Shown piece after piece: positions 24,817-64,000 of a stretch of DNA of 64,000 bases. Location of the stretch: assembly GCA_949293175.1 (NCBI GenBank), contig CASFCI010000003.1:78899-142898 (forward strand). The letters are read 5' to 3'. Each line of letters starts with the position of its first letter. Positions within the stretch are counted from its first letter, which is position 1. The DNA comes from an uncultured bacterium (GTDB lineage: Bacteria; Bacillota_I; Bacilli_A; RFN20; CAG-826). Below the pieces are notes generated by a model. That model worked only from the letters and a program-made list of their open reading frames with translations. It did not search any database and was not told where the DNA came from. The position numbers and the translations under genes are program-made.

Positions 24817-24817
24817 C

Positions 24818-24900
24818 GGCGTGAAAGGCAAAGCCAGGGAAACCTGGCGGCGCAAAACTAAAGGGCCTAAGCGAAAGACGGCAGCCAGTTACCCCAGGAA
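24818..24900 (+). ncRNA. candidate c-di-GMP-I (GEMM-like) riboswitch aptamer, copy 1
   Basis: aGGCAAAgCC followed by hairpin CAGG-GAAA-CCTG (GNRA loop). Then GGCGCAAAACTAAAGGGCC, a CCUAAG element, and GGCAGCCAG. It resembles the GEMM core (GGCAAACC ... GACGCAAAGCC). It lies about 120 nt upstream of the operon start at 25021. Confidence 0.45.
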
Positions 24901-25020
24901 GCAGGAGATCATCTCCGCGGGCAACTGAGCTGCATTTTCCTTGCTTCCACTAGGGCTAAGCCCCCAATCCCCGGGAATGGATTCCAATGGTAATACCGAG
25001 GAGAAGGAGCGCCCGCCTTG

Positions 25021-26968: not shown

Positions 26969-28522
26969 ATGAGCGCTTACTTCGAATACCTAAAGCAGAT
27001 GATAATCGAGTTCTTCACCAACCTCGGACTTTTCTTCTCCGACGCGTTCGCCTATCCGTGGTCGAAGGTGCCGGGGCAGGTTGACTACTACAATTCGCTT
27101 TTCGCCAACTACTCGCCCGACTTCGGGGGAGGAGGATGGTTCTTCTTCATCCTGTTCCTAATCTTGCTCATCGCCGCCTTCGGGGCTTTGGGCTATCTTG
27201 TATACTACCTTATACGCCGCTACGTGCATTTCCGCGCCTCCACCGAAGACACCACTAAGTACCGCGAGGAGATCGAGCGGCTCAACCTCGAGCTATACCA
27301 CGCGCTCTCCGAGAAGGACCGCGTGTTGGGGCTGCAGGTCCATAGCCTAGCCACCGCCGGGATCGACGTCGACGCCCCCAAGGCGGAAGAAGGCGGGGAG
27401 AAGAAGGAAGAGGAGGTTAGCGAGGACGACGTCAGGTTCCCGAAGCTATGCGACGTCGACGCCCGCTACGCCACCCCGATGCGCCCCACCGTCCTGCCCG
27501 AGGACGCCGCCAATATATCGCTAGAGGGCATCTGCGAGCGGTTCCGCCTATTCTGCGCCTCCCAGCTCGGCCTTTACTACACCATCGAGACCATGCGGGA
27601 GTTCATCGCCTCCATCGGCACCTCCAAGATCATCATCCTCGAGGGTATATCCGGCACCGGCAAGACCTCCTTGCCCTACGCTTTTGGGCGCTTCATAAGG
27701 CACAACGCCGCCATCTGCTCGGTCCAGCCTAGCTGGCACGACCGCTCGGAGCTGCTCGGCTACTACAACGACTTCACCCACCGCTTCACCGAGACCGAGT
27801 TCCTCCGCGCCATCTACGAGGCCACCTACCGCGACGACCTATCCGTCGTCGTCCTCGACGAGATGAACCTCGCCCGCATCGAGTACTACTTCGCCGAGTT
27901 CCTCTCCATCATGGAGATGCCTAACGTCAGCGAGTGGAACATCTCATTGGTCGCCGCGCCGAGAAAAGACGACCCGAAGCACCTCACCGACGGGAAGCTC
28001 TTGATCCCGCAGAACATAATCTTCGTCGGCACCGCCAACAACGACGACTCGACCTTCACCATCACCGACAAGGTCTACGACCGCTCGATGTCGCTTTTCT
28101 TCGACAACAAGGGCATCCCCTTCGACTCGACCTTCACCGAGGCCTGCCCGCTGCCATACGAATACGTCGCCTCGCTATTCGAGAAGGCCAAGGCCGACTT
28201 CCCGCTATCGGCCAAAAACCGCGAGAAGTTCGAGTCCCTCGACGAGTTCGTCATCGCCAAGTTCCGCCTGGCCTTCGGCAACCGAATATTGCGCCAGATG
28301 GAGTCCTTCGTCCCCTGCTACGTCGCCTGCGGCGGGACCGAGCTCGAGGCCATCGACTACATCTTCGAGTCGAAGATCCTCAAGAAGTTCGAGGTGCTCA
28401 ACATCTCCTTCCTCCGCGATGAGCTGATGGACCTCGAGGCCGAGCTCACCAAGCTCTTCGGCAAGAACGAGTTCAAGCTGTCCAAAGCCAAGATAAGGAG
28501 CTTCCTCAAGACCGTAAGCTGA
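26969..28522 (+). CDS. membrane-anchored McrB-family AAA+ (GTPase-type) ATPase
   Basis: N-terminal TM helix (FFFILFLILLIAAFGALGYLVYYLI) and a coiled-coil. Walker A is IIILEGISGTGKTS. Walker B/McrB signature is VVVLDEMNLARIEYYFAEFLSIME (compare DEINRANxxxxFGEL). The NxxD-type segment FVGTANNDDS matches the McrB MNTADRS region. Confidence 0.65.
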   Translation: MSAYFEYLKQMIIEFFTNLGLFFSDAFAYPWSKVPGQVDYYNSLFANYSPDFGGGGWFFFILFLILLIAAFGALGYLVYYLIRRYVHFRASTEDTTKYREEIERLNLELYHALSEKDRVLGLQVHSLATAGIDVDAPKAEEGGEKKEEEVSEDDVRFPKLCDVDARYATPMRPTVLPEDAANISLEGICERFRLFCASQLGLYYTIETMREFIASIGTSKIIILEGISGTGKTSLPYAFGRFIRHNAAICSVQPSWHDRSELLGYYNDFTHRFTETEFLRAIYEATYRDDLSVVVLDEMNLARIEYYFAEFLSIMEMPNVSEWNISLVAAPRKDDPKHLTDGKLLIPQNIIFVGTANNDDSTFTITDKVYDRSMSLFFDNKGIPFDSTFTEACPLPYEYVASLFEKAKADFPLSAKNREKFESLDEFVIAKFRLAFGNRILRQMESFVPCYVACGGTELEAIDYIFESKILKKFEVLNISFLRDELMDLEAELTKLFGKNEFKLSKAKIRSFLKTVS

Positions 28523-28523
28523 T

Positions 28524-30650
28524 ATGCCAAAGGCCCGCACCACCCTTAGCCTTGCCGAGCGGGCATACCTAAGGAAGATAAAAACCCTGCTCACCCAAAG
28601 CGCCTCATTCTATGAGCTGCTGCTTTCGCTGCGCCAGGAGAGGAACACCTACCTCGCCCAGAAGTCGCGCCTCGAGGCCAAGTCCATCGACCCCTCCTTC
28701 ATCGACGAGCTCGAGAAGGGGTTCGACGCCATCGACGCGATCATCAAGAACCCCCGCACCTTCATCAAGGAGGACGACGTGCTGGTCGAGGCCGGAAGGG
28801 CCAAGCGGATCTCGCCCCGCTCGATAAGCCATCTGGCATCCCACACCCAATACGTCCATAACGTCGACGATGACGGCAACGTCACCCCGGAGAAGCTGAT
28901 GGTCCCGGAGTCCGACATCGACTACTGGATCTACGAGAACCGGTTCATCATGACCCTGATCAAGAAGTGCTCGGTCTTCATCCAGAAGAGACTTCTCTTC
29001 ATCAAGGACCATGGCGAGACCCGCGATTCCGAGGTGCTGCTGCTGCACACCGACCACAATGTCGGCGAGGTCAAGTACGAGGTCGACACCAGGATCAAGC
29101 TTTCCTGCGCCTCCACCGACTCGGGCAAAGCCAAGGTCAACGAGGACCTCTTGATCCGCCTCGCCAAGCTGCGCGAGCGGGTCGCCTACTTCGCCTCCTC
29201 GCCCTTCATGTCGGCCATGAAGGGGGCCAAGGAGGTCGCCAACCCGATCCACCCCACCAACCTGCTGGTCAAGAACCCGGAGTACAAGAAGGCCCTCGCC
29301 CTATGGAAGTTCATCGACTCCTACAAGGAACTCGGCATCGAGGTCTCCGTCAAGGAGGACAGCAAGAAGTTCAAAGACGACTACGTCGAGACGCTTTGCT
29401 CGCTTTTAGCCGCCTCGATCGTCACCCTCGAGGGGAACCTCGTCAAAGACGACGAGGTCAAGGCCAAGTCGACGAAGAAGAAGATAATCCCGAAGGTGCT
29501 CTTCTCGCTTGAGGACGAGACCTTCTACGACGGCCGCTTCCTCTACGACCAGTTCCCGCTCCGCGAGCGGAAGAAGATCAGCCCGCTCTACCCGACCGTC
29601 GAGGAATCGAAGGCCTACCGGGAGGAGTTGGAGCGCAAACGGGCCGAGGACAAGGCCAAGAAAGCCATCGTCGAAGCCGAGATCGAGCGCGCCAAGGAAC
29701 GCGAGATCGAGCTGCAGGCAAGGGCCAACCGCAAGATGCTAGAGGAACAGAGGAAGCAGGACGAGCGCGAGCTCATCCGCGCCGCCATCGAGGCCGAGAA
29801 GGCCAAGCTTTCCGAGCAGCTAGAGGCCAAGCGGAAGGCCGATCGGGCCGCCGAGGAGGAGCTGCGCAAGCTGCGCAAGGCGAGGATCATGATCGTCGAG
29901 GCCGGCAAGAAAGACCGCGCCGGAGAAAAGCCCGCCCCGAAGAGCAGCGACGGCTTCCCCGACGAGACCCCAATCGTCGTCGAGCAGACCCCGATCATCG
30001 CCTCCACCCCCGAGGAGCAGGGCATAAAGACCACCGTCGGCAAGCCCAAGCGGGTCCGCCGCACGGCCAAGAAAGTCACCAAGAAGGCCAAGCCGGCCAA
30101 GAGGGTAGAGGAAGAGAAGCCGCTGGAAGCGGAGACTGTTTCGGAATCGCCCGTCGAAGAGGAGCCAATCAAAGAGGAGGCCCCAAAGCAAGAGGACGTC
30201 GCCGCGATAATCTCCAGCGCCCCGGAAGAGGAACTGGCCAAACAGCAGTCCGCGCCCGCGGTGGAAGAGTCCGCCCCAATAGCCGAGGAGGCTCCCAAGG
30301 AAGAGACAAAGCCGGCGGAGGAGACCGAGCAAAAGCAGGATTCTTCAGAAGGTAAGGCCGAGGATAAAACCCCAGGCGAGCCCGAGGAAGAAGCCAAGGC
30401 CGAGCCGGAAAAGCCCGCAGATTCCAAGGATTCGGAGCAGGAAAAGCCCCAGGATTCAGCCTCGGAGAATAAGCCCGAGGATAAGAGGAAGAAGAAAGGC
30501 AAGGCCGCCCGCAAAGCCAAGAAAGAGGAGAAGAAGGCCGAGGAAGCCGCTAAGCCCAGCAAGCCGACCTACACCACCCTCAAGACCCGCTCCAAGCGCG
30601 GCGGCAGGAGCTTCGTCGTCGACTACGCTAGGAAAGGCAAAAGAAGATGA
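28524..30650 (+). CDS. partner protein of the McrB-like ATPase; structured N-half, coiled-coil, long E/K/P/A-rich disordered tail
   Basis: The start codon lies 1 nt after the upstream stop. Residues about 1-340 are ordered. Then a coiled-coil segment (EELERKRAEDKAKKAIVEAEIERAKE...). About 250 aa of acidic, proline-rich low complexity follow, ending in a K/R-rich patch. A McrC-like nuclease motif could not be confirmed. Confidence 0.5.
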   Translation: MPKARTTLSLAERAYLRKIKTLLTQSASFYELLLSLRQERNTYLAQKSRLEAKSIDPSFIDELEKGFDAIDAIIKNPRTFIKEDDVLVEAGRAKRISPRSISHLASHTQYVHNVDDDGNVTPEKLMVPESDIDYWIYENRFIMTLIKKCSVFIQKRLLFIKDHGETRDSEVLLLHTDHNVGEVKYEVDTRIKLSCASTDSGKAKVNEDLLIRLAKLRERVAYFASSPFMSAMKGAKEVANPIHPTNLLVKNPEYKKALALWKFIDSYKELGIEVSVKEDSKKFKDDYVETLCSLLAASIVTLEGNLVKDDEVKAKSTKKKIIPKVLFSLEDETFYDGRFLYDQFPLRERKKISPLYPTVEESKAYREELERKRAEDKAKKAIVEAEIERAKEREIELQARANRKMLEEQRKQDERELIRAAIEAEKAKLSEQLEAKRKADRAAEEELRKLRKARIMIVEAGKKDRAGEKPAPKSSDGFPDETPIVVEQTPIIASTPEEQGIKTTVGKPKRVRRTAKKVTKKAKPAKRVEEEKPLEAETVSESPVEEEPIKEEAPKQEDVAAIISSAPEEELAKQQSAPAVEESAPIAEEAPKEETKPAEETEQKQDSSEGKAEDKTPGEPEEEAKAEPEKPADSKDSEQEKPQDSASENKPEDKRKKKGKAARKAKKEEKKAEEAAKPSKPTYTTLKTRSKRGGRSFVVDYARKGKRR

Positions 30651-31432
30651 GGAAGTGGATCAGCTACACCATCAACGGCCTGCTCATCGCCCTGGTGGCG
30701 TTCTTTGCCTATTGCCAGATCTCGATGGTCGCCTCGATGGGTAGCAACTACGGCGTGCCCTCGGTATTCGGCTATTCCTTCCTCTACGTCGCGACCGACT
30801 CGATGGAGGGCGACCTGCCCGATTCGCTGCCGGTCGGCTCGGGCATCGTCATCAAGGACGAGGGGCCGGAGAACGTGCAGGTCGGGGACATCATCACCTT
30901 CTATTACCCCGAGCTCGGCGCGACCGACACCCACCGCGTCCACGAGATAGAGCGCAACCAGGACGGGACCCTCACCTTCTATACTAGGGGCGACAACCTC
31001 AACGCCCAGCTTTCCGGGGGATCCTGGAGCGAGGACTACCGCGAGGTGGTGCCGGAGTCCAATTACGTCGGCACGGTCGTATACAGCTCGCTGCCTTTCG
31101 GGAGCTTCCTAACCTACGTCAGCCCCCAGGTCCCCTCGGAGAAGAGCCATTCCAGCTGGGTGTTCCCGCTGCTGATCGTCACCCCGCTTTCCATCGCCGC
31201 CGTCTACTCCATAGCCGACATGGCCATCAAGCTGCGGAAAGAATCCAAGGCCGAGAAGGAGGAGCTCGAGCAGGCCAAGAAGCAATCCGGCATCGACTTA
31301 AACGACGAAGCCGCCGTTTTGGCCTTCGAGGAAAAGTGGCATTATAAGAAGGAGCTTCGCGAGGACATGCAGAAGCAGAAGGAAAAAGAGCTCCGAAAAT
31401 TAAGGAAAGAGCTTAGGAGGGAGAGAAGATGA
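30647..31432 (+). CDS. sipW: signal peptidase I, SipW/archaeal type (S26B)
   Basis: YVATDSMEG (SGSMEP-like catalytic Ser box), GDIITFYYP...THRVHEI and FYTRGDNLNAQ align with B. subtilis SipW motifs. C-terminal TM helix. ATGA overlap with the upstream gene. Confidence 0.75.
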   Translation: MRKWISYTINGLLIALVAFFAYCQISMVASMGSNYGVPSVFGYSFLYVATDSMEGDLPDSLPVGSGIVIKDEGPENVQVGDIITFYYPELGATDTHRVHEIERNQDGTLTFYTRGDNLNAQLSGGSWSEDYREVVPESNYVGTVVYSSLPFGSFLTYVSPQVPSEKSHSSWVFPLLIVTPLSIAAVYSIADMAIKLRKESKAEKEELEQAKKQSGIDLNDEAAVLAFEEKWHYKKELREDMQKQKEKELRKLRKELRRERR

Positions 31433-33021
31433 ACCAATCCCAGAAGCTTAGCCTAGGCCTATTCGCCGGGCTCGCCTGCCTCGACGCCGCCTGCTTCGCG
31501 GCCTTGATAAGCCTGTTGTCGCTCTCGCTTTCCTCCGGCCGCCCGGTCGCCGGGGACTCGCTTTGGGCGGTGCTCTGCCTATCGCTCTCATTCGCCATAT
31601 TGACCATCGGGTCTTTGTTCCCCCTATCGAGATTCATGACATCGTCGCTGAAGAGCAAGCGCATCAAGGAGATATTCGGCGAGGACCTTCCGATCTTCAC
31701 CCCAAAGCAGCTCGCCAGGATGGCAAGGAGGGCCAAGGCCGACGGCAGGAAGAACAAGCTGATCTGCCTCATGGTCTCGGTCAAGGGGCCGTCGAACTCA
31801 TCGGTTTCCTCGATGCAGAAGGAAAACGCCATCAAGGCCATGCGGCATTCCTACGATTTCCTCCGCGATAAATTGCCCTACGCCACGATCGGCTATTCGA
31901 TAATCGGCGGGTTCACCCTGCTCGAACTTGTCGAGGATGAGGCCGAGCGCCTCGACGAATACCGGGCCATCGTGCTCGAGCTTTCCTCCTCGCTGCAGAA
32001 CACCGGGGCCTTGCCCTACGCCTATCTTTTGGCCGGTGAATCCCGAAGGCTGGTAGAGAAGGGCAGGCGCATCGACGGCAAAGCGCTGCTGCAGGAGGCC
32101 GAATACGCCCTCCGGCATTCCGCCAACAACCGCCTTTCCTGCGACCTGCAGCCGTATAGCCCCTCCCTTCAGGAAGACGACGCGGCCCTGCACTGGCTCG
32201 ACACCGACCTCTCCTCCGCCATCGAGCGCGGCGAATTGATCGTTTTCTACCAGGCCAAGCGCTCGCTTAGAAGCGGCGGCTACTACGGGGCCGAGGCGCT
32301 GATCCGCTGGAAGCACCCCCGGAGGGGCCTATTGCCGCCATCGGTCTTCGTGCCCTATTGCGAATACTCCGGACGCATCGTCGAGATCGACCACTTCGTT
32401 TTCCTCTCCGCCTGCAAGGCAAAGCAGGAATGGGCCAAAGCCGGGAGGAAGCCGCTCACCATATCGGTCAACCTATCCCGCCGGACGGTATATGACCCCG
32501 GGCTGCTCGACTTCCTTTCCAGCACCGTCGAGAAGTACGGCGTCGACCCATCGGAGATGGAGCTTGAGCTAACCGAATCCCTCGCGGCCGAGAACCTGGT
32601 CTTCATCTCCTCGGTCATCAAGCGCATCAAGGAGCTCGGATTCAAGACCTCGATCGACGACTTCGGGATCGGCTATTCCTCGCTAAGTGCCCTCAAATCG
32701 ATACCTTTCGACGTCCTCAAGATAGACAAATCGTTCATCGACGACCTCGAGATCGAGAAGAAGTCCCGCGACATGGTCGGGTCGATCATCTCGCTGGTCC
32801 ATGCTTTAGGAATGAAGGTCGTGGCCGAGGGGGCCGAAAGCCTGAAGCAGGTCGAGATACTCTCCTCGCTCGGGGCCGATGGCATCCAGGGATACTACTT
32901 CTCCCGCCCGCTACGCAAAGACGCCTTCGAGGCGCTGGTCGAGGAAGACGAGGCCAGGCGCAGGAAGAAGGAGAAAGACGACCGCGATCGGCGCAAGGCC
33001 GAGAAGGAGGCAAGGCAATGA
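31429..33021 (+). CDS. membrane-anchored c-di-GMP phosphodiesterase (degenerate GGDEF + catalytic EAL)
   Basis: N-terminal TM region. The GGDEF position carries IGGFTLLE. EAL motifs are intact: EALIRW, ELELTES, DDFGIGYSSL, KIDKSFI, VAEGAES, QGYYFSRP. Confidence 0.8.
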   Translation: MNQSQKLSLGLFAGLACLDAACFAALISLLSLSLSSGRPVAGDSLWAVLCLSLSFAILTIGSLFPLSRFMTSSLKSKRIKEIFGEDLPIFTPKQLARMARRAKADGRKNKLICLMVSVKGPSNSSVSSMQKENAIKAMRHSYDFLRDKLPYATIGYSIIGGFTLLELVEDEAERLDEYRAIVLELSSSLQNTGALPYAYLLAGESRRLVEKGRRIDGKALLQEAEYALRHSANNRLSCDLQPYSPSLQEDDAALHWLDTDLSSAIERGELIVFYQAKRSLRSGGYYGAEALIRWKHPRRGLLPPSVFVPYCEYSGRIVEIDHFVFLSACKAKQEWAKAGRKPLTISVNLSRRTVYDPGLLDFLSSTVEKYGVDPSEMELELTESLAAENLVFISSVIKRIKELGFKTSIDDFGIGYSSLSALKSIPFDVLKIDKSFIDDLEIEKKSRDMVGSIISLVHALGMKVVAEGAESLKQVEILSSLGADGIQGYYFSRPLRKDAFEALVEEDEARRRKKEKDDRDRRKAEKEARQ

Positions 33022-33740
33022 TACTCATCGTCGGCGAAGACCAGGACGCCTTGCTCTACCTGCGCAACCGGCTAAACCTCGCCCGGGAGGAGAACATCAA
33101 CGACTACCTCCACGCCGCGGTTGGGACGCTCGGCGAGGAGAAGGTCGCCGTCTCCTGCGTTGGCATCGGGCTCAGCTTAGTCGGCATAAACACCGCCACC
33201 CTGCTTTCAGTATACGATCCGTATCTGGTCATCAACATCGGCTGCGTCGCCTCCATCAAGGGGACGCTCCACCAAGGCGACATCTTCATCCCCGAGCGCT
33301 ACTACGTCGAGGGCATAGACTATTCCGGCGACGGCAAGACCATATCCGGGCAGCTCCCGGGCCTGCCGCCTTTCTTCCTAACCGAGCCTAGCCTCGCCGA
33401 GAAGGCCGAATCAATCGGGTATGAGCTGGGCGGCAAATTCATTGAGCGCGCCTCCTTGCTAAGCGGGGACATGCGCCTGCTCGATGAACCAGAGTACCAG
33501 CAGAAGCTCAAGATGAGGTACGCCGGCTACTCGAGGCTCACCTGCTACGACAACTCCTCGTACGGCGTTGCCTTGGCCTGTTATCTCCGCAAAACCTCGC
33601 TTCTTTCGATAAAAGCCGTCAATTACGAGGCCAATGCCGTCTCCGAGCGGCTCAATTTCCGCCGCAAGGGACTCGAGGCGATGCCCTTCATCGGGCGCCT
33701 AGTGGCCGGGCTGCTGCTTAGCCTGTCGAAGGGCCGTTGA
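33018..33740 (+). CDS. purine nucleoside phosphorylase/MTA-SAH nucleosidase family (PNP_UDP_1) protein
   Basis: MILIVGEDQDA..., VAVSCVGIGLSLVGINTATLL..., YLVINIGCVAS and QGDIFIPE parallel MtnN motifs (MKIGIIGAMEEE / SGIGKVAAA / VINTGSAG / VGDIVVSD). It is the last gene of operon 1. Confidence 0.55.
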   Translation: MILIVGEDQDALLYLRNRLNLAREENINDYLHAAVGTLGEEKVAVSCVGIGLSLVGINTATLLSVYDPYLVINIGCVASIKGTLHQGDIFIPERYYVEGIDYSGDGKTISGQLPGLPPFFLTEPSLAEKAESIGYELGGKFIERASLLSGDMRLLDEPEYQQKLKMRYAGYSRLTCYDNSSYGVALACYLRKTSLLSIKAVNYEANAVSERLNFRRKGLEAMPFIGRLVAGLLLSLSKGR

Positions 33741-33765
33741 CGGATTTTATATGTAATATAAAAAC

Positions 33766-33793
33766 TTGATACGCTCCCGTATAAGTGTAGAAT
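33766..33793 (+). promoter_or_regulatory. candidate sigma70 promoter TTGATA-N16-TAGAAT for fibre operon 2
   Basis: It sits in an AT-rich spacer directly upstream of the second riboswitch-like leader. The geometry mirrors copy 1. Confidence 0.3.
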
Positions 33794-33797
33794 GAAC

Positions 33798-33875
33798 TCG
33801 ACAAAGGCAAACCTAGAGCGATCTAGGGGCGCAAAACTACAGGGCCTCTCCGAGGCAGCCAGGTGCCACTAATCC
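33798..33875 (+). ncRNA. candidate c-di-GMP-I (GEMM-like) riboswitch aptamer, copy 2
   Basis: aaaGGCAAACC followed by hairpin TAGA-GCGA-TCTA (GNRA loop). Then GGGGCGCAAAACTACAGGGCC, hairpin GGCCTC-tcc-GAGGC, and AGCCAGG. 18 of 19 identical to copy 1 over GGCGCAAAACTA(A/C)AGGGCC. It overlaps the tracked GTG start at 33863, which argues for the ATG at 33887. Confidence 0.5.
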
Positions 33876-33886
33876 AAAGCAAGACT

Positions 33887-36625
33887 ATGGCCACCTGTTC
33901 CTTCAAAACGAAATTAGCCCTATCGCTCACCGCGGCTTTTTCGTTTTTCGCCTTGGTCTTCTCCGTCGGCGGCATAACCTTGGCGGCCTACCTAAACGCC
34001 ATCGAGGCCGAGTATTCCAACAAGATCGGTTTCCGCGATCTGGGACAGTACTTCAACGGTGTCTCTACCGATTCCAATACTGGCAAGACAACCTACCAGA
34101 TAAGCAATGCGGATGAGTTCCGAAACCTCCAGATGCTGGTTTCGCTTGGGCTATTTGATGAAGATGACATATTCAATTTGACCTCCGATATCACCTGGAG
34201 TGGAACCGCCATGGCCCCGATCGGATCCGACGACATGCCGTTCAACTCGACCTTCAATGGCTGCGGGCATACCATATCCAACCTTCAAATCGCTTGTTCG
34301 GACGGGCGCGATGCCGGCCTTTTCGGGTATACCTCAATCAACAGCGAAGTGAAGAACCTCATCTTGGCAAGTCCCACCATCACCATCAATGCAAATTCAA
34401 ACGGTGGCAACGAGGTTTCGGGGTCACCGATTGAAGCGGTTTTGTCTACGGCGGCCAAAGGCATGCCAGAGATCGTGTTCTCAAATCCGGGTCAAGAAGT
34501 CACCGGAAGCATAAACGTCATCAACGATTCCGATAAGTCTCAATCCACCATCAAGGGATTCCCGCCAACCGTGCAAGACATCAACGGGAATTCTTACGAG
34601 GTCATATATGAATCGTCTGACGAAAACCTCATCAAAGCCCAGGGCGATGGATCTTTCCTGACTTTCAAAACTGAGACCGCGGCACCGAATTACGATCTTT
34701 TCGCCTGCACAATTACTTCCAAGGTTAAATACTTAATTGACGATAGGTTCGGATATTACGTTCTTGAACGTTATCAGTTCAACGTGTTGGGGAACGGCTT
34801 AGTCACAACTACCACAGATCAAGACGGCAACCACATGGGGGCGTTTAAGACAATCCACCCAAGCAACAACGAGCACAAAACATACGCCGGTTTTTTCATT
34901 GGGCACTGTGATGGAAAAGCCAATCATCTTGGTCTTGTTGGTGACGATGAGCAAGGCAATTTCAAAGCTAAATTAGTTATTAACGAAGGCTCCAGAAAGT
35001 ATATTTATTCATCAAGAGTCTTGATAGGGATGACAAGAAGCGACAACCCAATTGATGCCTCCGCCGGCGAATCAATGAGTATTACCTATGACTTTGATTC
35101 GCCAATCACCGAAGCGAATGTCACGAATGGCCCTACTGGAGAAATGTGGGTAAAAGACATAGAATCCGGATACGCAAATGCAAGTTATGCCTATGGGTCA
35201 AATTATTTAACTAACGAAGACCCGTATGATACCGGAAACGATAAAGATGTTAACCACCAGTGGGAAAACGCTGAGCTTCTAACCAAACCATACATTCCAA
35301 ACACAACCATTAGGGAATATTCGAAAATCTTTCCAGGCAGTAAACCATCCGCCGCGGAAGGGCCAAGCGGAACCAAACAAGCGACCAATTATTTTGCTAA
35401 CGTCAAACTCCCAGAATCCGATGAAACGACCAATAAAAGTTCATTCTTCGGCCTAGTTTTGGATGGTGGTTTAGGCGCCGGGACGATGACGCAAGTCGTT
35501 CATAAAGGAGGGTTGTTAAACTCCTATAGACGATGGGTAAGGGGCATATATGCAAATAACGGAATATGGCTTTGGTCAACAAAGAACCTCAGTCCTCTAT
35601 TCGGGGAAAACCTATTCTATATAAACATCAGGATTTCGTACGTTGCAACAAGAACTGGGGGCAATGAAGGACAAAACAGTTTTCAGATACTCGCAAATGC
35701 CTACAATCCCGAAGTAATATCAGGCGAAAATGAAGAACTGACTGGATCTTATGCGCAAAACTTATTTTGGCAGGACCTCCACTCTCCATACAATTACCAT
35801 CTCCAAAAGCAGGATTCTATGTACGATCCAACAAATTATCCAATCATAGACGATGGGAAGCTTCACTCGGCTGTTATTACATTGAAAATAGATCAAGACA
35901 ACAACAACTTTTTGGGTTCGATTTTCCAATCGTGGTTTGGAAACGAAAACTCCGAGATTCGATATCCAATGCTTGCAATAGGCATGGGTTCAAACCAAAA
36001 TCCGGACAGCATAAACGATTCTACGATGCGATACTATGCTGACATATATGAAGAAGAAAATTTAGTTGGCGATTCTCATTTTTTAACTTACGAAAGCAAT
36101 AAATTCGGATCTAATGGAAATGAAGACATAGGGAATTATTTATATGCCGCTTCCCTAATAGATGTTGGACTGGCCACTTATGGATATCAAACTTTCCAAA
36201 GAAACGGGGACGATACATTCCTTGGCTTGCCGAATTTGTCTCAAAGGTACCGAGATCACGAACGAGGCTATTTTAATTCTTATTTTACTGTAGAAAACGG
36301 CACCAAACTTTATATCAAGGATTTCCAAATGACCTTTACAAACAGGCAAGGAAACACCGAAGACATCATTTATGATGTCGATTATATTAATTCGCGAGAT
36401 CTCCCGATTTTTGAAGCTAATGCCTATTCTTACTGGCCAAGTTCGAGCAACGTATTGGTTGCATTCGACATAGACGGAAGTCAGGGGAACGAAGCTGTTT
36501 CTTTCTCTTTCTACCGGAATGCAAATGGCACGATATTTGGCAACTCCAGTAACACGAATGCTGGCTATGGTTTGACCAATTCTGGCGGAACGGGCTACAC
36601 CGACGCCACCTTGACGCAGGGGTAA
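33887..36625 (+). CDS. large secreted adhesin-like protein (SipW-cognate-like signal; GLUG/parallel beta-helix-like N-domain), AT-rich body
   Basis: N-terminus MATCSFKTKLALSLTAAFSFFALVFSVGGITLAAYLNAIEAEY. The GLUG-type motif is PFNSTFNGCGHTISNLQIACSDGRDAGLFGY. About 910 aa with an N/T/G/Y-rich beta body. GC drops sharply about 200 nt into the gene. The alternative tracked start at 33863 (GTG) overlaps the leader. Confidence 0.6.
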   Translation: MATCSFKTKLALSLTAAFSFFALVFSVGGITLAAYLNAIEAEYSNKIGFRDLGQYFNGVSTDSNTGKTTYQISNADEFRNLQMLVSLGLFDEDDIFNLTSDITWSGTAMAPIGSDDMPFNSTFNGCGHTISNLQIACSDGRDAGLFGYTSINSEVKNLILASPTITINANSNGGNEVSGSPIEAVLSTAAKGMPEIVFSNPGQEVTGSINVINDSDKSQSTIKGFPPTVQDINGNSYEVIYESSDENLIKAQGDGSFLTFKTETAAPNYDLFACTITSKVKYLIDDRFGYYVLERYQFNVLGNGLVTTTTDQDGNHMGAFKTIHPSNNEHKTYAGFFIGHCDGKANHLGLVGDDEQGNFKAKLVINEGSRKYIYSSRVLIGMTRSDNPIDASAGESMSITYDFDSPITEANVTNGPTGEMWVKDIESGYANASYAYGSNYLTNEDPYDTGNDKDVNHQWENAELLTKPYIPNTTIREYSKIFPGSKPSAAEGPSGTKQATNYFANVKLPESDETTNKSSFFGLVLDGGLGAGTMTQVVHKGGLLNSYRRWVRGIYANNGIWLWSTKNLSPLFGENLFYINIRISYVATRTGGNEGQNSFQILANAYNPEVISGENEELTGSYAQNLFWQDLHSPYNYHLQKQDSMYDPTNYPIIDDGKLHSAVITLKIDQDNNNFLGSIFQSWFGNENSEIRYPMLAIGMGSNQNPDSINDSTMRYYADIYEEENLVGDSHFLTYESNKFGSNGNEDIGNYLYAASLIDVGLATYGYQTFQRNGDDTFLGLPNLSQRYRDHERGYFNSYFTVENGTKLYIKDFQMTFTNRQGNTEDIIYDVDYINSRDLPIFEANAYSYWPSSSNVLVAFDIDGSQGNEAVSFSFYRNANGTIFGNSSNTNAGYGLTNSGGTGYTDATLTQG

Positions 36626-36631
36626 ACATCG

Positions 36632-37597
36632 ATGGGAAGCAAGAAGACATTGATATTGACCGCTGCGGTCAGCCTGCTGGCCACCTTGTCCATCTCGGTG
36701 GCCACCTACGCCTGGTTTTTGACCAGCTTCGGGGCCAATGGCGGCAAGACAATCAACCTGACCTCAGGCGTCAGCTCGGTCATGGTCACCGCCAAGGCCT
36801 ACTCGATGAACGCCGATGAGAACGGCGGTTTCAGCGCGAAGAACAGCATCTCCATCGACAAAGCCGGAAACGTCACCGCCGAGGAGCAGGCTACCGGCCC
36901 CACCATCAGCTCGAGTTCCCTATCCGTCTCGTTCAATCAGGTCCGGGATGCCTACGACTATCTGCCTCTATACGCAAACGAGGTGAGCCTAAACCGCGAG
37001 AAGCTGCCTCGGGCCTACGTCGAATTGGAGTACCGCCAGGACAATGTCGGAGGCTACGTGAAAGTCGACGTCGAGCCAGTTGTCAAGAATACCTCTATAG
37101 AATGGTCAAAATCCGGGGATGCGTCGACATTTGGCGCGTATCTTCGCAGCTTCACCTACCGCAACGACGAATCCGCCCCAACCAGCGAATCGATCAGACA
37201 AATGCTCGAGGATAGGACAGAAAACGGCGCAAATCCCGACTCCAGCGTCTGGACCTCGCTTTCCTCTACTGCCGACGTCTATTCGGGACAGCTGCACGTC
37301 AATCCGCTCAACCTATCGCAGAACGGCGAACTCTACTATTCCTGCGCGACCTTGCTCGAGATAACGATCGACCCGTTGCCGTTCCTTGATATGCTTATGG
37401 ACACCATGCAGTCCTTAGACCAAGCAACATCTGATACGGAGTCCACCGGCCAGGGAACATCTAGCGTCAAATTCGAGCTTTCGCTCAACTTCAAGCTCAA
37501 CATCAGCTACTCCTCCAGCCCGTTCCGGGAAGGGAATAACGAGCTGCCGGTGGCCGAGCTCAACCCAGGAAGCTTTCTAGAAGGGGGCAACGCATGA
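36632..37597 (+). CDS. secreted protein with SipW-cognate class signal peptide (TasA-like paralog)
   Basis: N-terminus MGSKKTLILTAAVSLLATLSISVATYAWFLTSFGANGG. 321 aa. Only a 6-nt gap from the upstream gene. Confidence 0.65.
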   Translation: MGSKKTLILTAAVSLLATLSISVATYAWFLTSFGANGGKTINLTSGVSSVMVTAKAYSMNADENGGFSAKNSISIDKAGNVTAEEQATGPTISSSSLSVSFNQVRDAYDYLPLYANEVSLNREKLPRAYVELEYRQDNVGGYVKVDVEPVVKNTSIEWSKSGDASTFGAYLRSFTYRNDESAPTSESIRQMLEDRTENGANPDSSVWTSLSSTADVYSGQLHVNPLNLSQNGELYYSCATLLEITIDPLPFLDMLMDTMQSLDQATSDTESTGQGTSSVKFELSLNFKLNISYSSSPFREGNNELPVAELNPGSFLEGGNA

Positions 37598-38559
37598 GGA
37601 AGGGCAAGCTATTGACAAAACTGCTCGCCATGTCGGTCGCCCCATTGCTCTGCTTGGGATCTTTGGGCGTGGCCACCTACGCCTGGTTCACCGCCTCGAG
37701 GCGGGCCGAGCTAGGCGTCAACGAGATCAAGGTGAAGGCCCCGGAGTTCCCGGATACCTTCAGGCTATATGCCTATAACGGCAACTCCCCAAGCGGCTAC
37801 ACCGACTACGCCTACCTATCCGCGATCGGCGAGGCCGACCAAGCGGCGACCATAGGATCAGGCGTTTCCTTCTCCAGCCAATTCAGCGAAATAACCGGAT
37901 CGGAATACCGCCTGGAGAACCTCTTCCCGAAGTCCTGCTACCTCTTCGCGCTTTTCTTCGAGAAGGGCGAGGACTTCAATTCATTCTCGCTTAGCCTCAC
38001 CGCCTCTTGCTATGGCGAGGCCAGTGAAGGGACTGGCAAAGCGGTGCTCTACAACATAGAGGATGACGGCAGCGAGGGTCTCAACCACGGGCAGCAGATC
38101 GTGCTGGCCTCGGCCATCGACGTCTACACCAAGACGCTGCAGCTTTCCGATTCGGAATACACCGCGGACGACGGGGTTCTCCAGCTTAGCGACGCCAACT
38201 CGGAAGCCGCCAACGCCTTCATCACCACCGACATGGGCAGCGGCGACCCGACCCTGGGCCAGGTTACCGGTCGGCTGGTGGAGGACAGGTTCGACTACTT
38301 CCAGAACCGCGACGATGACGACACCTCGGCGATAACCCGGCAGGTGGTCGAGGAGACCGCGATGTCCACTTCGGCTTGCCTGGTCCTAATCCAAGTCGAG
38401 TTCTCCGACTTCCCGGAGACCCATATGTCGCCCCTCGACGAATCCGATCCGTCGTCTGGGGCCGATTATTGGGAATTCGACCCGTCATCAAGCCTATCGA
38501 CGCCCTACCAGGGGCTGCCGTTTTCCATCGAGGAACTGACTCTAAGGGGGAATAGATAA
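37594..38559 (+). CDS. secreted protein with SipW-cognate class signal peptide (TasA-like paralog)
   Basis: N-terminus ...LCLGSLGVATYAWFTASRRAELGVNEIKVKAP. 321 aa. ATGA-type overlap with the upstream gene. Confidence 0.65.
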   Translation: MRKGKLLTKLLAMSVAPLLCLGSLGVATYAWFTASRRAELGVNEIKVKAPEFPDTFRLYAYNGNSPSGYTDYAYLSAIGEADQAATIGSGVSFSSQFSEITGSEYRLENLFPKSCYLFALFFEKGEDFNSFSLSLTASCYGEASEGTGKAVLYNIEDDGSEGLNHGQQIVLASAIDVYTKTLQLSDSEYTADDGVLQLSDANSEAANAFITTDMGSGDPTLGQVTGRLVEDRFDYFQNRDDDDTSAITRQVVEETAMSTSACLVLIQVEFSDFPETHMSPLDESDPSSGADYWEFDPSSSLSTPYQGLPFSIEELTLRGNR

Positions 38560-38561
38560 CC

Positions 38562-41561
38562 ATGAAGAAGAACTCCGCAAAGCGGGCCGCGCTCATACTC
38601 TCGGCCAGCATGCTCGGCGCCTGCATCGCCTGTTACCTCATCCTGGCCATCGTGCTATTGAGCCTTGGGATGCACGACGTGCTTTCCTACATCTCCGTCT
38701 TTTTCTGCTTCGCCTGCGCCATAAGCTCGGCCGTGTTCGGCTACCTCGCCTACCGCCGCGCCAAGGTCGGCCGCCGGATGAGGCAATCCCTCATCGGGCA
38801 GCTCGACGACCTTTCCAAGGGCATAGTCAGCTATGGCGAGCCGCTGACGGGCTACGACGACCTCGACCGGTTCCAGGACGAGTTCAACTACTCGCTTTCC
38901 AGCCTGCGGGCGGTCGAGAAGGCCGAGGACGCGCCCCACTACAAAGGGCTGGGGTTCATCGAGGAGGAGACCTCTTTCCCGTCCACGCTGCTTGAGGAGA
39001 TAAGGCGCAACCCGAGCTACCGCCAGGCTCTGCTGGCCATCAAGGCGACCGGCAAGGGCAAGATCGACGACATCGGGTTCCAGAAGCTCCGGGTGGAGAT
39101 ACTCTCCGAGTTCCCCGACGCGCTGCTATCCCCTTATGGGGATGACGGCTATTTCGCCTACGTCTACGACTGCTCCTCCTTCGTCGAGCTTTATAAGCGG
39201 TGCGCGACTTTGGTCGCGAACTTCGCCCACCAAGACAAGGACCAAAGCCAAGGCGAGGGCAACGTCTTCGGCGCCAGGGTCGGCGGGGCCATCTTCCCCT
39301 TCATCCCGGCCGTGATGCTCATCGACTCGGCCAAGAAGGCCCTCGACAAGGGCAAGGACGTCGAGATCGACAAAGGGGACGGCAAGATCTACTACCCCTC
39401 CAACAAGAGCAACCGCCTGGCGAGGCAGGTCATCGCCCTCACCAACTTCGAGAAGCTCTTCTCCGCCACCTACACCGCGAAGGACGAGAAGCAGCGCCGC
39501 CAGACACTAAGGGACTCGCTGTCTTATTTCCTTAAGACCGAGGGGTTCTCCCGCGGGGGATTCCTCCGCTACGACCATCTGAAGCAGGGCTACGAATTGC
39601 TATTCGAGGTGGCGGAAGGCGAGGACGAGGTATGCTCCCCCAAGGCGCTGGGCGACTTCATGCCCGAGCGGTTCATCGATCCGCTTTACGACCGGGCAAA
39701 GGAGGATTTCCCCCTGCTGGTCAACTCGTTGCCCTACGCCGACAAGGCGGTCGCCGATTTCCTCGACTCGCTGCGCGCCGGATCGGCCGTGCTCGCCCCG
39801 GTGGAATGGTCCGGGGAGAAGTTCGGCCTGCTTTACATGCTGTCCAAAGACCCCGGGAAGGCGTTCGGCCTCGACGAGGCCAGCAAGCTCCACGACCTCT
39901 ATTCCCTTTTCGCCACCGCGATCATATCCTCGAAGAGGCTGCAGAAGGACGAGGAGAAGAAGTCGTTGCTCGACGCCTTATCGCGCCGGGCTGGCAAGTA
40001 CATATACGCCATAGACGAGGACTACCTGATTTCCGAATGCACATCCAACCTGCAGAAGAAGCTCGGATTCGACCCGCGGAAGATGAAGTGCCACAAGGCC
40101 CTCTTCGACTCCGACTCGCCCTGCCCGATGTGCCCGCTTAGGCAGGGAGCCATCAGCGCCACCATCAAGAAGATATCGGCCAAGCCGTCGCTCGTCTCGG
40201 TGGTCACCCGCGGCAAATCGGGGTCAAGCTCGGGCTCGGTGCTCATAATCGAGCCGACCGGGAAGGCCGGCGACTCGCCCCTATCAAAGTCGAGCCTGGA
40301 CAAGAACCTGCTCATCCCGAACCTCGCCTCCTTCAAAAGCGCCCTCTCCCGCGAGCTGGTCGACGGCGATGGATTCATATTGGCCTTCCGCCTCATCAAC
40401 GCCCAGAAGGTGCTCTCATCCCATCCGCTGCAGACATACTCGACCTTGCTATACGCGATCCTGGAGAACCTCGAGTCGACGCCCTACATCTCCGAGTGCT
40501 ACCGCTACGACGACCACACCATCGCCATCAAGCTATCGAGCATGTACAAACGCACCGAGCTCTACGCCGCGGTCGAGGAGATCGCCCTTTCCCTAAACGC
40601 CGCCATCGACGTCGAGGGCGAGCAGTTCTCCCCGCGTTATAGTTACTGCGCCATCTATTACCCCGCCGAGGTCGGCTCGGTCGAGGAGATGGTCTCGCTT
40701 ATCCGCACCGAGCTCAGCCGCTCGCAGAAGCTTGGCGAGGGATTGCTCGCCGAGGTGGGCCGCAACAACCTCCGCAAGGCCAGCCGGAAGGACAACTTCC
40801 TCTCCCTTGCCGCCACCATGGCCGCCCGGGACAAGGCCAAGTTCGCCTTCTCGCCGATCTACGAGGCCTCGACCAAGCGAATCGCCGCCTTCGAGGCCTT
40901 CCCGATTCTCGAGGAGAACGGCAAGCCGATATCCAGCGGGGAGTTCGTGTCGATATTCCAGTCCGACCAGAAGGCCTTGGTCGCCTATGGGCAAAGCGCG
41001 ATGCGCGGCACCCTGAGCTTCCTATCCGGCATCCGCAACGAGCTGCGCAAGGCCAGCGTCGCCCGCGTCTATTTCCGCATCCGCTCGGAATTGGTGTCCA
41101 GCGACGCCCTATATGACTTCCTCACCGCCACCTTGCCATCATACCCCGAGGTCAAGGATAAGGTCGGCATCTTGGTCGACGCCGGGACCACCATCGAGTC
41201 CCCCACCGCCAAATCCGGCATGGAGAGGCTATCCAAGCTCGGGGTCAAGATCGCCCTGTCCGACGTGCGGGAGGAGCACCTCGGATCGGACTTCGACTTC
41301 TCCTCCGCCGACCTGGTCGAGGTGACCGAGGGACTCTGCCGCGACGCGATGGACAACGACTCGACCTCATTGGCATTGCTCCGCTTCGCCTCGAGGATGC
41401 AGCAGGAGAAGGTTCAGGTCGCCTGCAAAGGCGTTTCCGACGAGAGGACGCTCGGCTTCCTATCCGGCTCGATGATCGGGCTGGCCAAAGGCGGTATGTT
41501 CGGCAGCAATGTGCTGCTCCCCGAGGGGGTCGTCAGCGCCCTCAACTACTCATCCAATTGA
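38562..41561 (+). CDS. 999-aa membrane protein with degenerate GGDEF-like and degenerate EAL-like domains (candidate c-di-GMP receptor/regulator)
   Basis: Two N-terminal TM helices. The GGDEF position reads CYRYDDHTIAIKL (RxGGDEF replaced). The C-terminal EAL-like block (…VQVACKGVSDERTLGFL…GGMFG) lacks key catalytic residues. Only a 2-nt gap from the upstream gene. Confidence 0.5.
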   Translation: MKKNSAKRAALILSASMLGACIACYLILAIVLLSLGMHDVLSYISVFFCFACAISSAVFGYLAYRRAKVGRRMRQSLIGQLDDLSKGIVSYGEPLTGYDDLDRFQDEFNYSLSSLRAVEKAEDAPHYKGLGFIEEETSFPSTLLEEIRRNPSYRQALLAIKATGKGKIDDIGFQKLRVEILSEFPDALLSPYGDDGYFAYVYDCSSFVELYKRCATLVANFAHQDKDQSQGEGNVFGARVGGAIFPFIPAVMLIDSAKKALDKGKDVEIDKGDGKIYYPSNKSNRLARQVIALTNFEKLFSATYTAKDEKQRRQTLRDSLSYFLKTEGFSRGGFLRYDHLKQGYELLFEVAEGEDEVCSPKALGDFMPERFIDPLYDRAKEDFPLLVNSLPYADKAVADFLDSLRAGSAVLAPVEWSGEKFGLLYMLSKDPGKAFGLDEASKLHDLYSLFATAIISSKRLQKDEEKKSLLDALSRRAGKYIYAIDEDYLISECTSNLQKKLGFDPRKMKCHKALFDSDSPCPMCPLRQGAISATIKKISAKPSLVSVVTRGKSGSSSGSVLIIEPTGKAGDSPLSKSSLDKNLLIPNLASFKSALSRELVDGDGFILAFRLINAQKVLSSHPLQTYSTLLYAILENLESTPYISECYRYDDHTIAIKLSSMYKRTELYAAVEEIALSLNAAIDVEGEQFSPRYSYCAIYYPAEVGSVEEMVSLIRTELSRSQKLGEGLLAEVGRNNLRKASRKDNFLSLAATMAARDKAKFAFSPIYEASTKRIAAFEAFPILEENGKPISSGEFVSIFQSDQKALVAYGQSAMRGTLSFLSGIRNELRKASVARVYFRIRSELVSSDALYDFLTATLPSYPEVKDKVGILVDAGTTIESPTAKSGMERLSKLGVKIALSDVREEHLGSDFDFSSADLVEVTEGLCRDAMDNDSTSLALLRFASRMQQEKVQVACKGVSDERTLGFLSGSMIGLAKGGMFGSNVLLPEGVVSALNYSSN

Positions 41562-46363: not shown

Positions 46364-47031
46364 ACGTAGAAGTAAAGGCTGCAGAACATCAGTATCGCCC
46401 CGGCCAGCACGAAGAAATGGAACACCGTGTGGAACCAGAGGTTCTTTTTGCCGCCTAGCCCATAGAGCACCGCGCCGATCCAATAGGCGACGCCGCCGGA
46501 GGCGAGCAGCACCACCGCCTCCCATTTTAGGGCGAGTATCAAAGGATAGAAGGCCAAGACGATGGTCGAGCCAAGTATCACGTAGAGGGCCACCACGACC
46601 GTGTTGAACTTCTTTAGGCTAACCGAATTGAGCGCTATCCCGGTTATGCAGCCGGCATAGACGATGGCTAGTATCACATACCCCCAGGGGAAGCTTTGCC
46701 CAGGCACGGAGTGAAGCCCAACCAGGCAATATGGGGTATAGGTCCCCATGATGGGGAGGAAGACGAAGTCGTGGTCGAGGACCCGGAGCACCTTCTTGCC
46801 CCTGTTTTTGGCGAGGCTATGGTAAAGGCAGCTCATCAAAAACATCAGGAAGACGCCGACGACGTAGATGCAGGCCGACATTATGCCGACCCAATCGCTG
46901 GTTCGGCAGGCTTTGTCGATAAGGAAACCGCCGCCGATGAGGGCGAGTACGGCGCCCAGTCCATGGCTTATGGCGTTCCACAGTTCCTGGCTTAGGCGGT
47001 ATGGGGGTAGGTTCAGCTTGTGTTTTCCCAT
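46357..47031 (-). CDS. hemolysin III / PAQR family membrane protein
   Basis: N-terminal NAISHGLGAVLALIGGGFLI and seven TM helices. 224 aa. Confidence 0.8.
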   Translation of the reverse strand: MGKHKLNLPPYRLSQELWNAISHGLGAVLALIGGGFLIDKACRTSDWVGIMSACIYVVGVFLMFLMSCLYHSLAKNRGKKVLRVLDHDFVFLPIMGTYTPYCLVGLHSVPGQSFPWGYVILAIVYAGCITGIALNSVSLKKFNTVVVALYVILGSTIVLAFYPLILALKWEAVVLLASGGVAYWIGAVLYGLGGKKNLWFHTVFHFFVLAGAILMFCSLYFYVY

Positions 47032-47097
47032 GCCAAAATCATACCTACCTAGTATGAAATGTCAAGCCATCTAGTTTTAATTACTAGTTGTATTTCA

Positions 47098-47964: not shown

Positions 47965-47967
47965 AGG

Positions 47968-51321: not shown

Positions 51322-51323
51322 AA

Positions 51324-59379: not shown

Positions 59380-59433
59380 CAAATAATAAAATGCTTTGCT
59401 TTATTATTAGGCTATATATTTTATTTGATATCG

Positions 59434-60605: not shown

Positions 60606-60806
60606 TATTTACAAATATTTTAATATCGCCCCACGTATAATGCATAGTTTCTATCTTGGAAACATCTAGTTGAATACCACCTATCCATCAGTCATTGAGA
60701 AAAGAAATATAGCAAAACTTTTTAATATAAGAAGTGGACCCTAGATGATTATCAAAACGTATTAGGAAGAAAGTATTAAACATATGCTGTTCTTCTATTA
60801 GCACAA

Positions 60807-63550: not shown

Positions 63551-63677
63551 TATTTAATATTATATGACTCTGTTAAAAATCATTTATTAATCTTTTTTGA
63601 TTAGCTTCCTTCGGTTCCGTTCAATATCATGCCTTATATATTGAAATAACGCGATTCAATTTAATACTCTGTTCAAA

Positions 63678-63968: not shown

Positions 63969-64000
63969 TCTTGGCGAGATATTCGCTTAGCCCGATTCAA

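Follow-up and report, generated by a model that had tools for sequence, protein, structure and literature searches.

A 64-kb stretch of DNA from an uncultured bacterium, referred to here as the window, carries at 33796-33870 of its forward strand an aptamer of the class I riboswitches for cyclic di-GMP (c-di-GMP), known as c-di-GMP-I or GEMM-I. The aptamer, which we call copy 2, stands before a four-gene operon that opens with a gene for an exported protein of 912 amino acids (aa); copy 1, of the same family, heads a second operon. We have very little doubt that 33796-33870 is a genuine c-di-GMP-I aptamer. With moderate confidence, the element as a whole is best explained as a receptor-less GEMM-I aptamer that would be transcribed from its own promoter and would act as a translational ON switch for the four genes.

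The aptamer and its relatives

33796-33870, + strand: c-di-GMP-I (GEMM-I) aptamer, copy 2 (RF01051 match, RF03167 alignment, covariation)
24817-24896, + strand: riboswitch copy 1, with a GAAA loop and a CCUAAG receptor (RF01051)

The window was scanned against Rfam 15, in which RF01051 (c-di-GMP-I) has a gathering score of 35. Exactly two matches above the gathering score were obtained, both to RF01051. Copy 2 was matched by cmscan with 52.6 bits (E = 2e-7) over model positions 1-87, that is, at full length, a score well beyond chance for a 64-kb window, and copy 1 with 63.3 bits. A preliminary description of this DNA had proposed a GEMM-like riboswitch from a series of quoted strings, all of which are found in the sequence: aaaGGCAAACC at 33803-33813, CCUAGA-GCGA-UCUAGG at 33812-33827, GGCGCAAAACUACAGGGCC at 33828-33846, and GGCCUC-UCC-GAGGC at 33843-33856. 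The near-identity of the two copies that it reported is also seen in the alignment, where 1 of 19 positions differs over GGCGCAAAACUA[A/C]AGGGCC. The Rfam score, the ligand-contact nucleotides, and covariation among relatives all support the proposed identity.

The anatomy of copy 2 was read from its alignment to RF01051 and to RF03167, the latter of which also models the closing helix (P1 and C92 positions). In the first hairpin, G33807-C33808 pairs with G33831-C33832 and CCUAGA (33812-33817) pairs with UCUAGG (33822-33827) around the GCGA loop 33818-33821. The junction is GGC and includes C33830, and the A-rich linker begins at A33833. The second hairpin consists of AACU 33835-33838 and GGGCCUC 33842-33848 on the 5' side and of GAGGC 33852-33856, CC 33859-33860, and AGGU 33861-33864 on the 3' side, and is followed by G33865, C33866, and CA 33867-33868. 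The equivalents of the ligand-contact nucleotides G20, A47, and C92 (Vc2 numbering) are G33806, A33833, and C33866, and C33830-G33858 is the counterpart of C44-G83, a pair between the helices that is conserved universally and is C-G in 19 of 19 related sequences (roles of these nucleotides as in PMC4744006 and PMC6140456). The closing helix, P1 of the crystal structure, contains the pair G33800-C33867, which is G-C in 18 of the 19 sequences. The next position is a C-A mismatch in copy 2 and C-G in the sister alleles L062-L065 (related loci carry L numbers), and the third pair is mostly unpaired. Copy 2 shows every testable hallmark of c-di-GMP-I membership bar a strong closing helix.

The prototype of RF01051, Vc2 of Vibrio cholerae (PDB 3IRW), shares with copy 2 the two hairpins, the GGCAAAC and GCGCAAA cores, the G20, A47, and C92 equivalents, the C44-G83 pair between helices, a GNRA loop on the first hairpin, and the location in a 5' leader. 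Vc2 differs in possessing a GAAA loop with its receptor, whereas copy 2 has GCGA and no receptor; moreover, the closing helix of copy 2 is reduced to about one pair and its second hairpin is short, with the apical loop UCC. Relative to the Rfam consensus, the lineage of copy 2 as a whole is one base short in the 3' strand of the second hairpin. The earlier suggestion that the two copies belong to different subtypes is borne out, with a GCGA (GYRA-type) loop lacking a CCUAAG-type receptor in copy 2 and GAAA with CCUAAG in copy 1, in line with the rule that GEMM aptamers have either a GAAA loop with the receptor or a GYRA loop without it (PMC1950547). This distinction is an already known one.

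The exact proteins of the locus are present in chicken-gut metagenome assemblies, and the nearest named genomes are Candidatus Alloenteromonas pullicola, Candidatus Alloenteromonas pullistercoris, and Candidatus Enteromonas, all uncultured Bacillota. Through an alignment of homologues of the 912-aa protein, 18 homologous loci were chosen from species-representative genomes of related Bacilli, and in 17 of them Rfam places a c-di-GMP-I aptamer upstream of the homologue on the coding strand. The aptamer lies immediately before the large gene in relatives of high G+C content (GC), and about 1 kb upstream of it in low-GC relatives, where it directly precedes a gene of about 275 codons. The product of the latter shares an F[AS]WI/YAWF N-terminal motif with two 321-aa proteins of the window. 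Seven further loci, L062-L068, fall into the same three leader types. This position before related genes in different genomes shows by context that the aptamer is cis-regulatory.

Covariation was assessed on 19 related aptamers with slid partners and 500 shuffles as controls. The structure described above pairs in 91% of cells, compared with 15-40% when partners are slid, and eight pairs change on both sides, namely every one of the six in the first stem plus one each in the second hairpin and the closing helix. None of the 500 shuffles reached the covariation score, and the aptamer is kept in this way across genomes of 34-60% GC.

Transcript start, start codon, and expression platform

33745-33763, no strand assigned: AT-rich perfect palindrome TTTTATAT-GTA-ATATAAAA, abutting the -35 box (read from the sequence)
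33766-33793, + strand: promoter of sigma-70/sigma-A type, TTGATA-16 nt-TAGAAT (10 of 12 matches; conserved in relatives)
33860-33868, + strand: switching strand CAGGUGCCA (minimum free energy folds; the homologous strand is the 5' half of the terminator in copy 1 and relatives)
33863-33865, + strand: GTG that an open reading frame (ORF) tracker takes as the start of a 920-aa product; located within the aptamer, and not the true start
33869-33886, + strand: A/C-rich linker, the loop of the proposed OFF-state hairpin (folding, allele comparison)
33887-33897, + strand: start codon ATG (33887-33889) with codons 2-4, complementary to 33860-33868

With the candidate -35 (TTGATA, 33766-33771) and -10 (TAGAAT, 33788-33793) boxes, 2 nt lie between the end of the -10 box and the Rfam match, and 12 nt between the same end and G33806. 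A single promoter-like match of this kind is equally frequent in shuffled sequence; the promoter of copy 2 is kept across three diverged leader types, and a TTGACA/TATAAT-like pair ends a few bases before the aptamer in all 17 related riboswitch loci. The idea, already put forward in the preliminary description, that the transcript begins at the aptamer is consistent with this geometry, and is supported, not proven, by the conserved promoter. All three high-GC leader types keep the pattern TTTATAT...ATAT.AAA of the adjoining palindrome, which the low-GC relatives lack, and the palindrome may be a candidate regulator-binding site on top of the riboswitch or an UP-like element.

Four observations support the view that the downstream gene starts at ATG 33887, as had been argued, rather than at GTG 33863. 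Public gene calls give a product of 912 aa, which corresponds to ATG 33887; Met1 is an invariant column among 19 homologues; the GUG at 33863 is replaced by CUG in the other leader types; and L006 and L008 have an in-frame TAG three codons upstream of their ATG. In the leader type of L007, L067, and L068, the reading frame is open through the whole aptamer, and the gene calls of L067 and L068 begin at an ATG inside the -10 box and run through the aptamer. The read-through calls of this type are the same kind of artefact as the call from GTG 33863.

Only 16 nt separate the Rfam match from AUG 33887. The strand CAGGUGCCA comprises the 3' strand of the second hairpin, the C92 equivalent, and the 3' side of the closing helix, and is common to the aptamer and to a proposed OFF-state hairpin. 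In the latter, UGGC-C-ACCUG at 33888-33897, which takes in codons 2-4 and two bases of the start codon, pairs with 33860-33868 through 9 base pairs (bp) and one bulge, with a duplex energy of -13.8 kcal/mol. The start-codon hairpin is part of the unconstrained minimum free energy (MFE) structure at every 3' end tried, including that of 33800-33905 at -30.6 kcal/mol. In a secondary-structure model of the same segment, enforcing the aptamer costs 11.7 kcal/mol and frees 33892-33897, while U33888-C33891 stays paired to GCCA 33865-33868; the latter bases would be expected to be occupied by ligand binding and P1. The cost is comparable to the binding energy of a picomolar-to-nanomolar ligand (dissociation constants in PMC6140456). 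The 165-nt fold of the region (z = -2.9) is more stable than 199 of 200 shuffles, and the complementarity between start codon and 33860-33868 ranks 3rd of 87 when compared with other ATG starts of the window. Of the 86 other starts of ATG-ORFs, no more than 3 pair equally well with the strand.

A terminator scan of the + strand over 33744-34300 gave none, the sole site on this strand being a weak hairpin at 33723-33743, upstream of the promoter. Nor was a Shine-Dalgarno (SD) sequence found before AUG 33887, while most neighbouring genes carry GGAGG-like sites. With no terminator, no SD, and a strand complementary to the start codon, we infer a translational ON switch.

The corresponding strand of copy 1 forms the 5' half of an ON-type terminator.

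24918-24934, + strand: ON-type terminator strand of copy 1, followed by UUUU (complementarity)

In copy 1 and at least ten relatives, the strand AGCCAGUUACC on the 3' side of the second hairpin has a complement farther downstream, behind which comes a U-run. In copy 1, GCAGCCAGUUACCCC pairs with CGGGCAACUGAGCUGCA before UUUU (tail UUUUCC) at -21.9 kcal/mol, which was matched by 0 of 200 shuffles. Copy 1 and most low-GC relatives have this combination of complement and U-tract. Among GEMM instances, 78 of 322 have a terminator overlapping the second hairpin, which has been read as the ligand keeping the terminator from forming, with more expression at higher ligand (PMC1950547). Copy 1 and the low-GC relatives have this classic GEMM ON design. 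Copy 2 does not have this design: the complement 33888-33897 is present, with the tail UUCCUUCA and no terminator call.

The following mechanism is proposed for copy 2, whose design would derive from the GEMM ON design, the terminator helix having kept its 5' strand and now enclosing the start codon. The aptamer would form the 5' end of a four-gene mRNA (33887-41561) made from the promoter at 33766-33793. In the absence of ligand, 33860-33868 would leave the second hairpin and pair with 33888-33897, burying AUG 33887, which has no SD to help it. When c-di-GMP is bound at the three-helix junction, G33806 would read one guanine, C33866 would pair with the other, and A33833 would stack between them; 33860-33868 would be held in the aptamer, the A/C-rich linker and AUG would be single-stranded, and translation would start. 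We consider the ON logic, which rests on analogy and folding, rather probable, and give about even chances that occlusion is brought about by the local hairpin between 33860-33868 and 33888-33897.

A number of observations weigh against this explanation. The isolated 80 nt of copy 2 has an unremarkable MFE (z = -0.75), so that the aptamer is supported by the covariance model, conservation, and covariation and not by folding energy, and its closing helix amounts to one G-C pair plus mismatches. The means by which a ribosome recognises an SD-less AUG 33887 counts on the same side. With pairing of the strand 33860-33868 permitted at any point of 110 shuffled bases downstream, the start-codon hairpin is equalled in 75 of 200 shuffles and is not significant. 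The equivalent complementarity is weak in other leader types, where null starts are as good in 3 of 19 (L004), 3 of 13 (L008), and 14 of 22 (L007) cases. The leaders of the sister alleles are 97% identical, and their differences upstream of the ATG all lie within 33869-33886, the hairpin loop, except for two single-base changes; the arms therefore have no covariation. Furthermore, in the B-type loci L006-L008 a long-range helix of about 20 bp joins the 3' end of the aptamer, the linker, and AUG to GUCGUUUUUUCUAUCG..GGC in codons ~25-32. This helix (about 5950-6065 / 6010-6125) is matched by 0-3 of 300 shuffles, and its upper end shifts register among genomes. On the folding models, sister species would with this helix hide the start region by another route. 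For the window, a comparable long-range pairing of the initiation region with codons 21-33 was rejected as marginal, with 12 of 300 shuffles as good and with changes in L005 and L064 that do not covary with the linker. The 3' strand of the aptamer takes part in either candidate OFF-state helix, and either one buries the AUG, so the ON polarity is more robust than the identity of the exact helix.

The opposite polarity appears unlikely. In such an OFF switch, the compact ligand-bound aptamer, ending 18 nt before AUG, would block the 30S ribosomal subunit on an SD-less leader, and the ligand-free RNA would be translated. The aptamer does lie within the usual 30S footprint of AUG 33887, the evidence for the start-codon hairpin is statistically weak, and class I riboswitches of both polarities are known, with Cd1 being an OFF switch and Vc1 and Bc2 being ON switches (PMC4744006, PMC11218506). 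The folding points the other way, as the unconstrained fold buries AUG and the aptamer-constrained fold frees codons 2-4, and so do the ON-type terminator designs of copy 1 and of the low-GC orthologous leaders of the same gene family. Exported matrix or surface proteins are, furthermore, typically induced by high c-di-GMP.

Control that acts mainly on transcript elongation, and not on translation initiation, is an equally doubtful proposition. Here the 33860-33897 hairpin followed by UUCCUUC would act as a weak intrinsic terminator, or an early ORF left untranslated would be open to Rho or to pausing at the U-rich stretch 33936-33948. By position, the hairpin is homologous to the terminators of copy 1 and of relatives, and each of the three leader types has U-runs in the first 100 nt of its ORF, in non-homologous codons; L004 and L066 have a clear terminator-like hairpin, AAAGGGGGCGAAAACCGCCCUCUUUUU, inside the ORF. 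Nevertheless, the tail of the window hairpin has 4 U in 8 nt and its loop is 19 nt, so that it fails the terminator scan. In the window, the U-runs are part of a weak stem rich in A/U and do not follow a GC-rich one, and phenylalanine codons of a membrane segment account for part of the U-richness. An intrinsic terminator at the U-runs 33936-33948 in the early ORF, with no GC-rich stem and no terminator call, was rejected and is kept as a minor rival only. As a separate observation, the hairpin of L004 (about 5994-6025) and L066 (about 1536-1567) falls within the first 70 nt of the orthologous coding sequence.

Ligand specificity

The ligand of copy 2 is very probably c-di-GMP. Both copies in the window have G at position 20 and A at position 47, and both riboswitch-headed operons contain EAL-domain genes; the neighbouring canonical EAL gene and the divergent EAL-like domain encoded in the operon make c-di-GMP the expected ligand.

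GEMM-Ib riboswitches, such as Gs1761 of Geobacter and Cbe 1-2 of Clostridium beijerinckii, share the fold and the Rfam family with copy 2, and some relatives of copy 2 carry their A20; copy 2 differs in having G at this position. Specificity of the window copies for cyclic GMP-AMP (cGAMP), as in GEMM-Ib, was rejected on this ground (G33806 in copy 2). The c-di-GMP-I-GGC variant (RF03167) is close in sequence, and the sisters L007, L067, and L068 just pass its gathering score, whereas its defining G47 is A in the window and in these three loci. The variant was rejected for copy 2, in which position 47 is A33833 where the variant has G47 (GCGAA), and the best clan member is RF01051.

A different ligand for copy 2, either 3',3'-cGAMP as in GEMM-Ib or one like the unknown ligand proposed for the GGC variant, is very improbable. 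In its favour, A replaces G20 in 6 of 19 related aptamers, and the near-identical aptamers of L007, L067, and L068 are assigned to RF03167. These are countered by G20 in both window copies, by A47 in the window and in L007 compared with G47 in RF03167, together with the marginal score of 60.6 against 59, and by the canonical EAL phosphodiesterase (217.9 bits) encoded next door.

Two observations on the relatives deserve mention. The six aptamers with A20 are L009:4151, L009:2117(-), L010:4959, L013:11648, L015:138, and L018:2189. A20 is the signature of cGAMP-sensing or bispecific GEMM-Ib riboswitches (PMC6140456), and the related Bacilli that carry it may control the same gene set through another ligand or a wider ligand range. 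L007:5943-6017, L067:1506-1580, and L068:1506-1580 were assigned to RF03167 by clan competition at 60.6 bits with a gathering score of 59. All three have A at 47 (GCAAA) where the RF03167 consensus is G47 (GCGAA). Because the score is barely over the threshold and position 47 is A, we treat the assignment as marginal and probably a misassignment.

That the element resembles an aptamer by chance, is a decayed relic, or is simply the beginning of a coding sequence from GTG 33863 is barely credible: the unexceptional folding energy of the isolated segment, an SD-like GAGG 7 nt before GTG 33863, and the ORF that stays open through the aptamer in L007-type relatives and is used by gene callers are set against a Rfam score 17 bits above the gathering threshold, covariation and conservation across genomes of 34-60% GC, a GUG that is not conserved, the in-frame stop upstream of ATG in L006 and L008, and a Met1 that is invariant in homologues.

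Regulated genes, related systems, and significance

33887-36625, + strand: first gene, 912-aa beta-rich exported protein with a TasA-like signal sequence (GGITLAAY); GC 0.45
36632-37597 and 37594-38559, + strand: two paralogous 321-aa genes with the invariant N-terminal motif SVATYAWF
38562-41561, + strand: 999-aa membrane protein with a divergent C-terminal EAL-like domain (Pfam EAL, 37 bits; cut-off 31.3)

The 912-aa protein matches no Pfam or NCBIfam family. Its AlphaFold2 model has a mean pLDDT (predicted local distance difference test) of 66, and a Foldseek search against the PDB found nothing below E = 0.01, with only vague jelly-roll and lectin-like sandwiches; the label "adhesin" is a guess. 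The model of the 321-aa protein (pLDDT 51.6) is too poor for a fold search; its homologue is the gene directly behind the riboswitch in low-GC relatives. Between the EAL-like domain of the 999-aa protein and the canonical EAL protein (31429-33021, 7 kb upstream), BLASTP gave no alignment, and the former may serve as a degenerate receptor for c-di-GMP and not as an enzyme.

Between strains (the window and L062-L065), the 912-aa protein is 50-61% identical, compared with 81-100% for flanking genes and 97% for the leader plus the first 100 nt. Its first ~150-300 residues are conserved and the remainder diverges. The GC of the gene is 0.45, with a minimum of 0.37, as against 0.56-0.62 in its neighbours. 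Such hypervariability resembles the outcome of diversifying selection on a surface protein or of cassette exchange within it. Other AT-rich islands (GC 0.33-0.49) occur at 47000-49000, 51000-54000, and 59000-64000 of this ~60% GC genome.

The operon of copy 1 includes an archaeal/SipW-type signal peptidase at 30647-31432 (TIGR02228, 61.4 bits; cut-off 51.85) and the canonical EAL phosphodiesterase at 31429-33021 (217.9 bits), which ends 0.8 kb upstream of copy 2. It also includes, at 26969-30650, an McrB-like AAA_5 protein (weak, 20.6 bits) and a DUF2357 protein (28.3 bits). The AAA_5 and DUF2357 genes adjoin those for the SipW-type peptidase, the EAL phosphodiesterase, and a PNP_UDP-family nucleosidase-like protein, an odd mix for a c-di-GMP regulon.

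The region of TasA cleaved by SipW is GGGTWA|AF, with an aromatic residue at P2' (PMC10269814). By motif comparison, the N-termini GGITLAAYLNA (912-aa protein) and SVATYAWF (ATYAWF; 321-aa proteins) resemble this region. A search of the N-terminal 60 residues against the NCBIfam hidden Markov models, made to confirm a SipW-type signal peptide, gave no match even at E = 10. The TasA-like reading is based on the motif resemblance and on the SipW-type peptidase gene nearby. If the link holds, the two riboswitches would couple c-di-GMP to a processing enzyme and its substrates, with the EAL protein providing negative feedback. Among the ten papers listed by a literature search that asked for any two of the terms c-di-GMP riboswitch, SipW, and TasA, none contained "c-di-GMP riboswitch".

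The nearest parallels to copy 2 are the GEMM riboswitches whose terminator overlaps the aptamer (the 78 of 322 in PMC1950547), such as Bc2, which lies upstream of cap in Bacillus thuringiensis and is an ON switch (PMC11218506). They have in common with copy 2 a strand shared between the aptamer and an OFF-state helix, a Firmicute host, and a surface or matrix protein under control; copy 1 and the low-GC leaders are textbook cases. Copy 2 differs from them in that it has no U-tract, its OFF-state helix encloses the start codon, and the regulated gene is SD-less; with the start codon enclosed and no U-tract, control is probably translational. Vc1, upstream of gbpA in V. cholerae (ON, PMC4744006), is likewise a class I aptamer that raises a secreted colonisation factor at high c-di-GMP, the ON direction of copy 2 being deduced. 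The leader of Vc1 has ~130 nt between aptamer and start codon, in contrast to the 16-nt gap of copy 2. Copy 2 belongs to a known riboswitch class, in an unstudied lineage, and by analogy would work like Bc2 and Vc1 without a long leader or a terminator.

A broader and more tentative proposal, to which we give somewhat less than even chances, is that a single gene family has had its platform rebuilt. Copy 1, which lies 9 kb upstream of copy 2, and the low-GC relatives would keep the ancestral terminator, and the high-GC Alloenteromonas-like lineage would have lost the U-tract, the 3' strand of the terminator in effect turning into the start codon and the codons next to it in an SD-less gene, which gives a translational ON switch of only ~100 nt. 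The two riboswitches would then form a c-di-GMP master switch over a SipW-type peptidase and EAL feedback enzyme on the one hand and, on the other, over its TasA-like substrates, among them the surface protein that is hypervariable between strains, in an uncultured gut lineage of Bacillota with a small genome.

The aptamer itself adds nothing new to riboswitch biology and is found directly by Rfam. Its value for annotation is that the start codon of the downstream gene is fixed and that gene callers are seen to run ORFs through the riboswitch in sister genomes. Two leaders in one window, one of terminator type and one of start-codon type, would suit a study of how platforms are rewired as genome GC changes. 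What is potentially interesting is the rewired, very short, SD-less platform together with its conserved link to a TasA/SipW-like, strain-variable surface system. The sequence evidence suggests that an uncultured chicken-gut lineage near Candidatus Alloenteromonas and Candidatus Enteromonas uses c-di-GMP, and links this messenger to an uncharacterised conserved set of genes, whose products are a SipW-type peptidase, an exported protein of 900-1000 aa that is hypervariable, EAL proteins, and proteins that carry TasA-like signal peptides. As a whole, the set is a good candidate for a system that builds a biofilm matrix or surface fibres; copy 2 sits just before the variable surface-protein operon and probably turns that operon on at high c-di-GMP.

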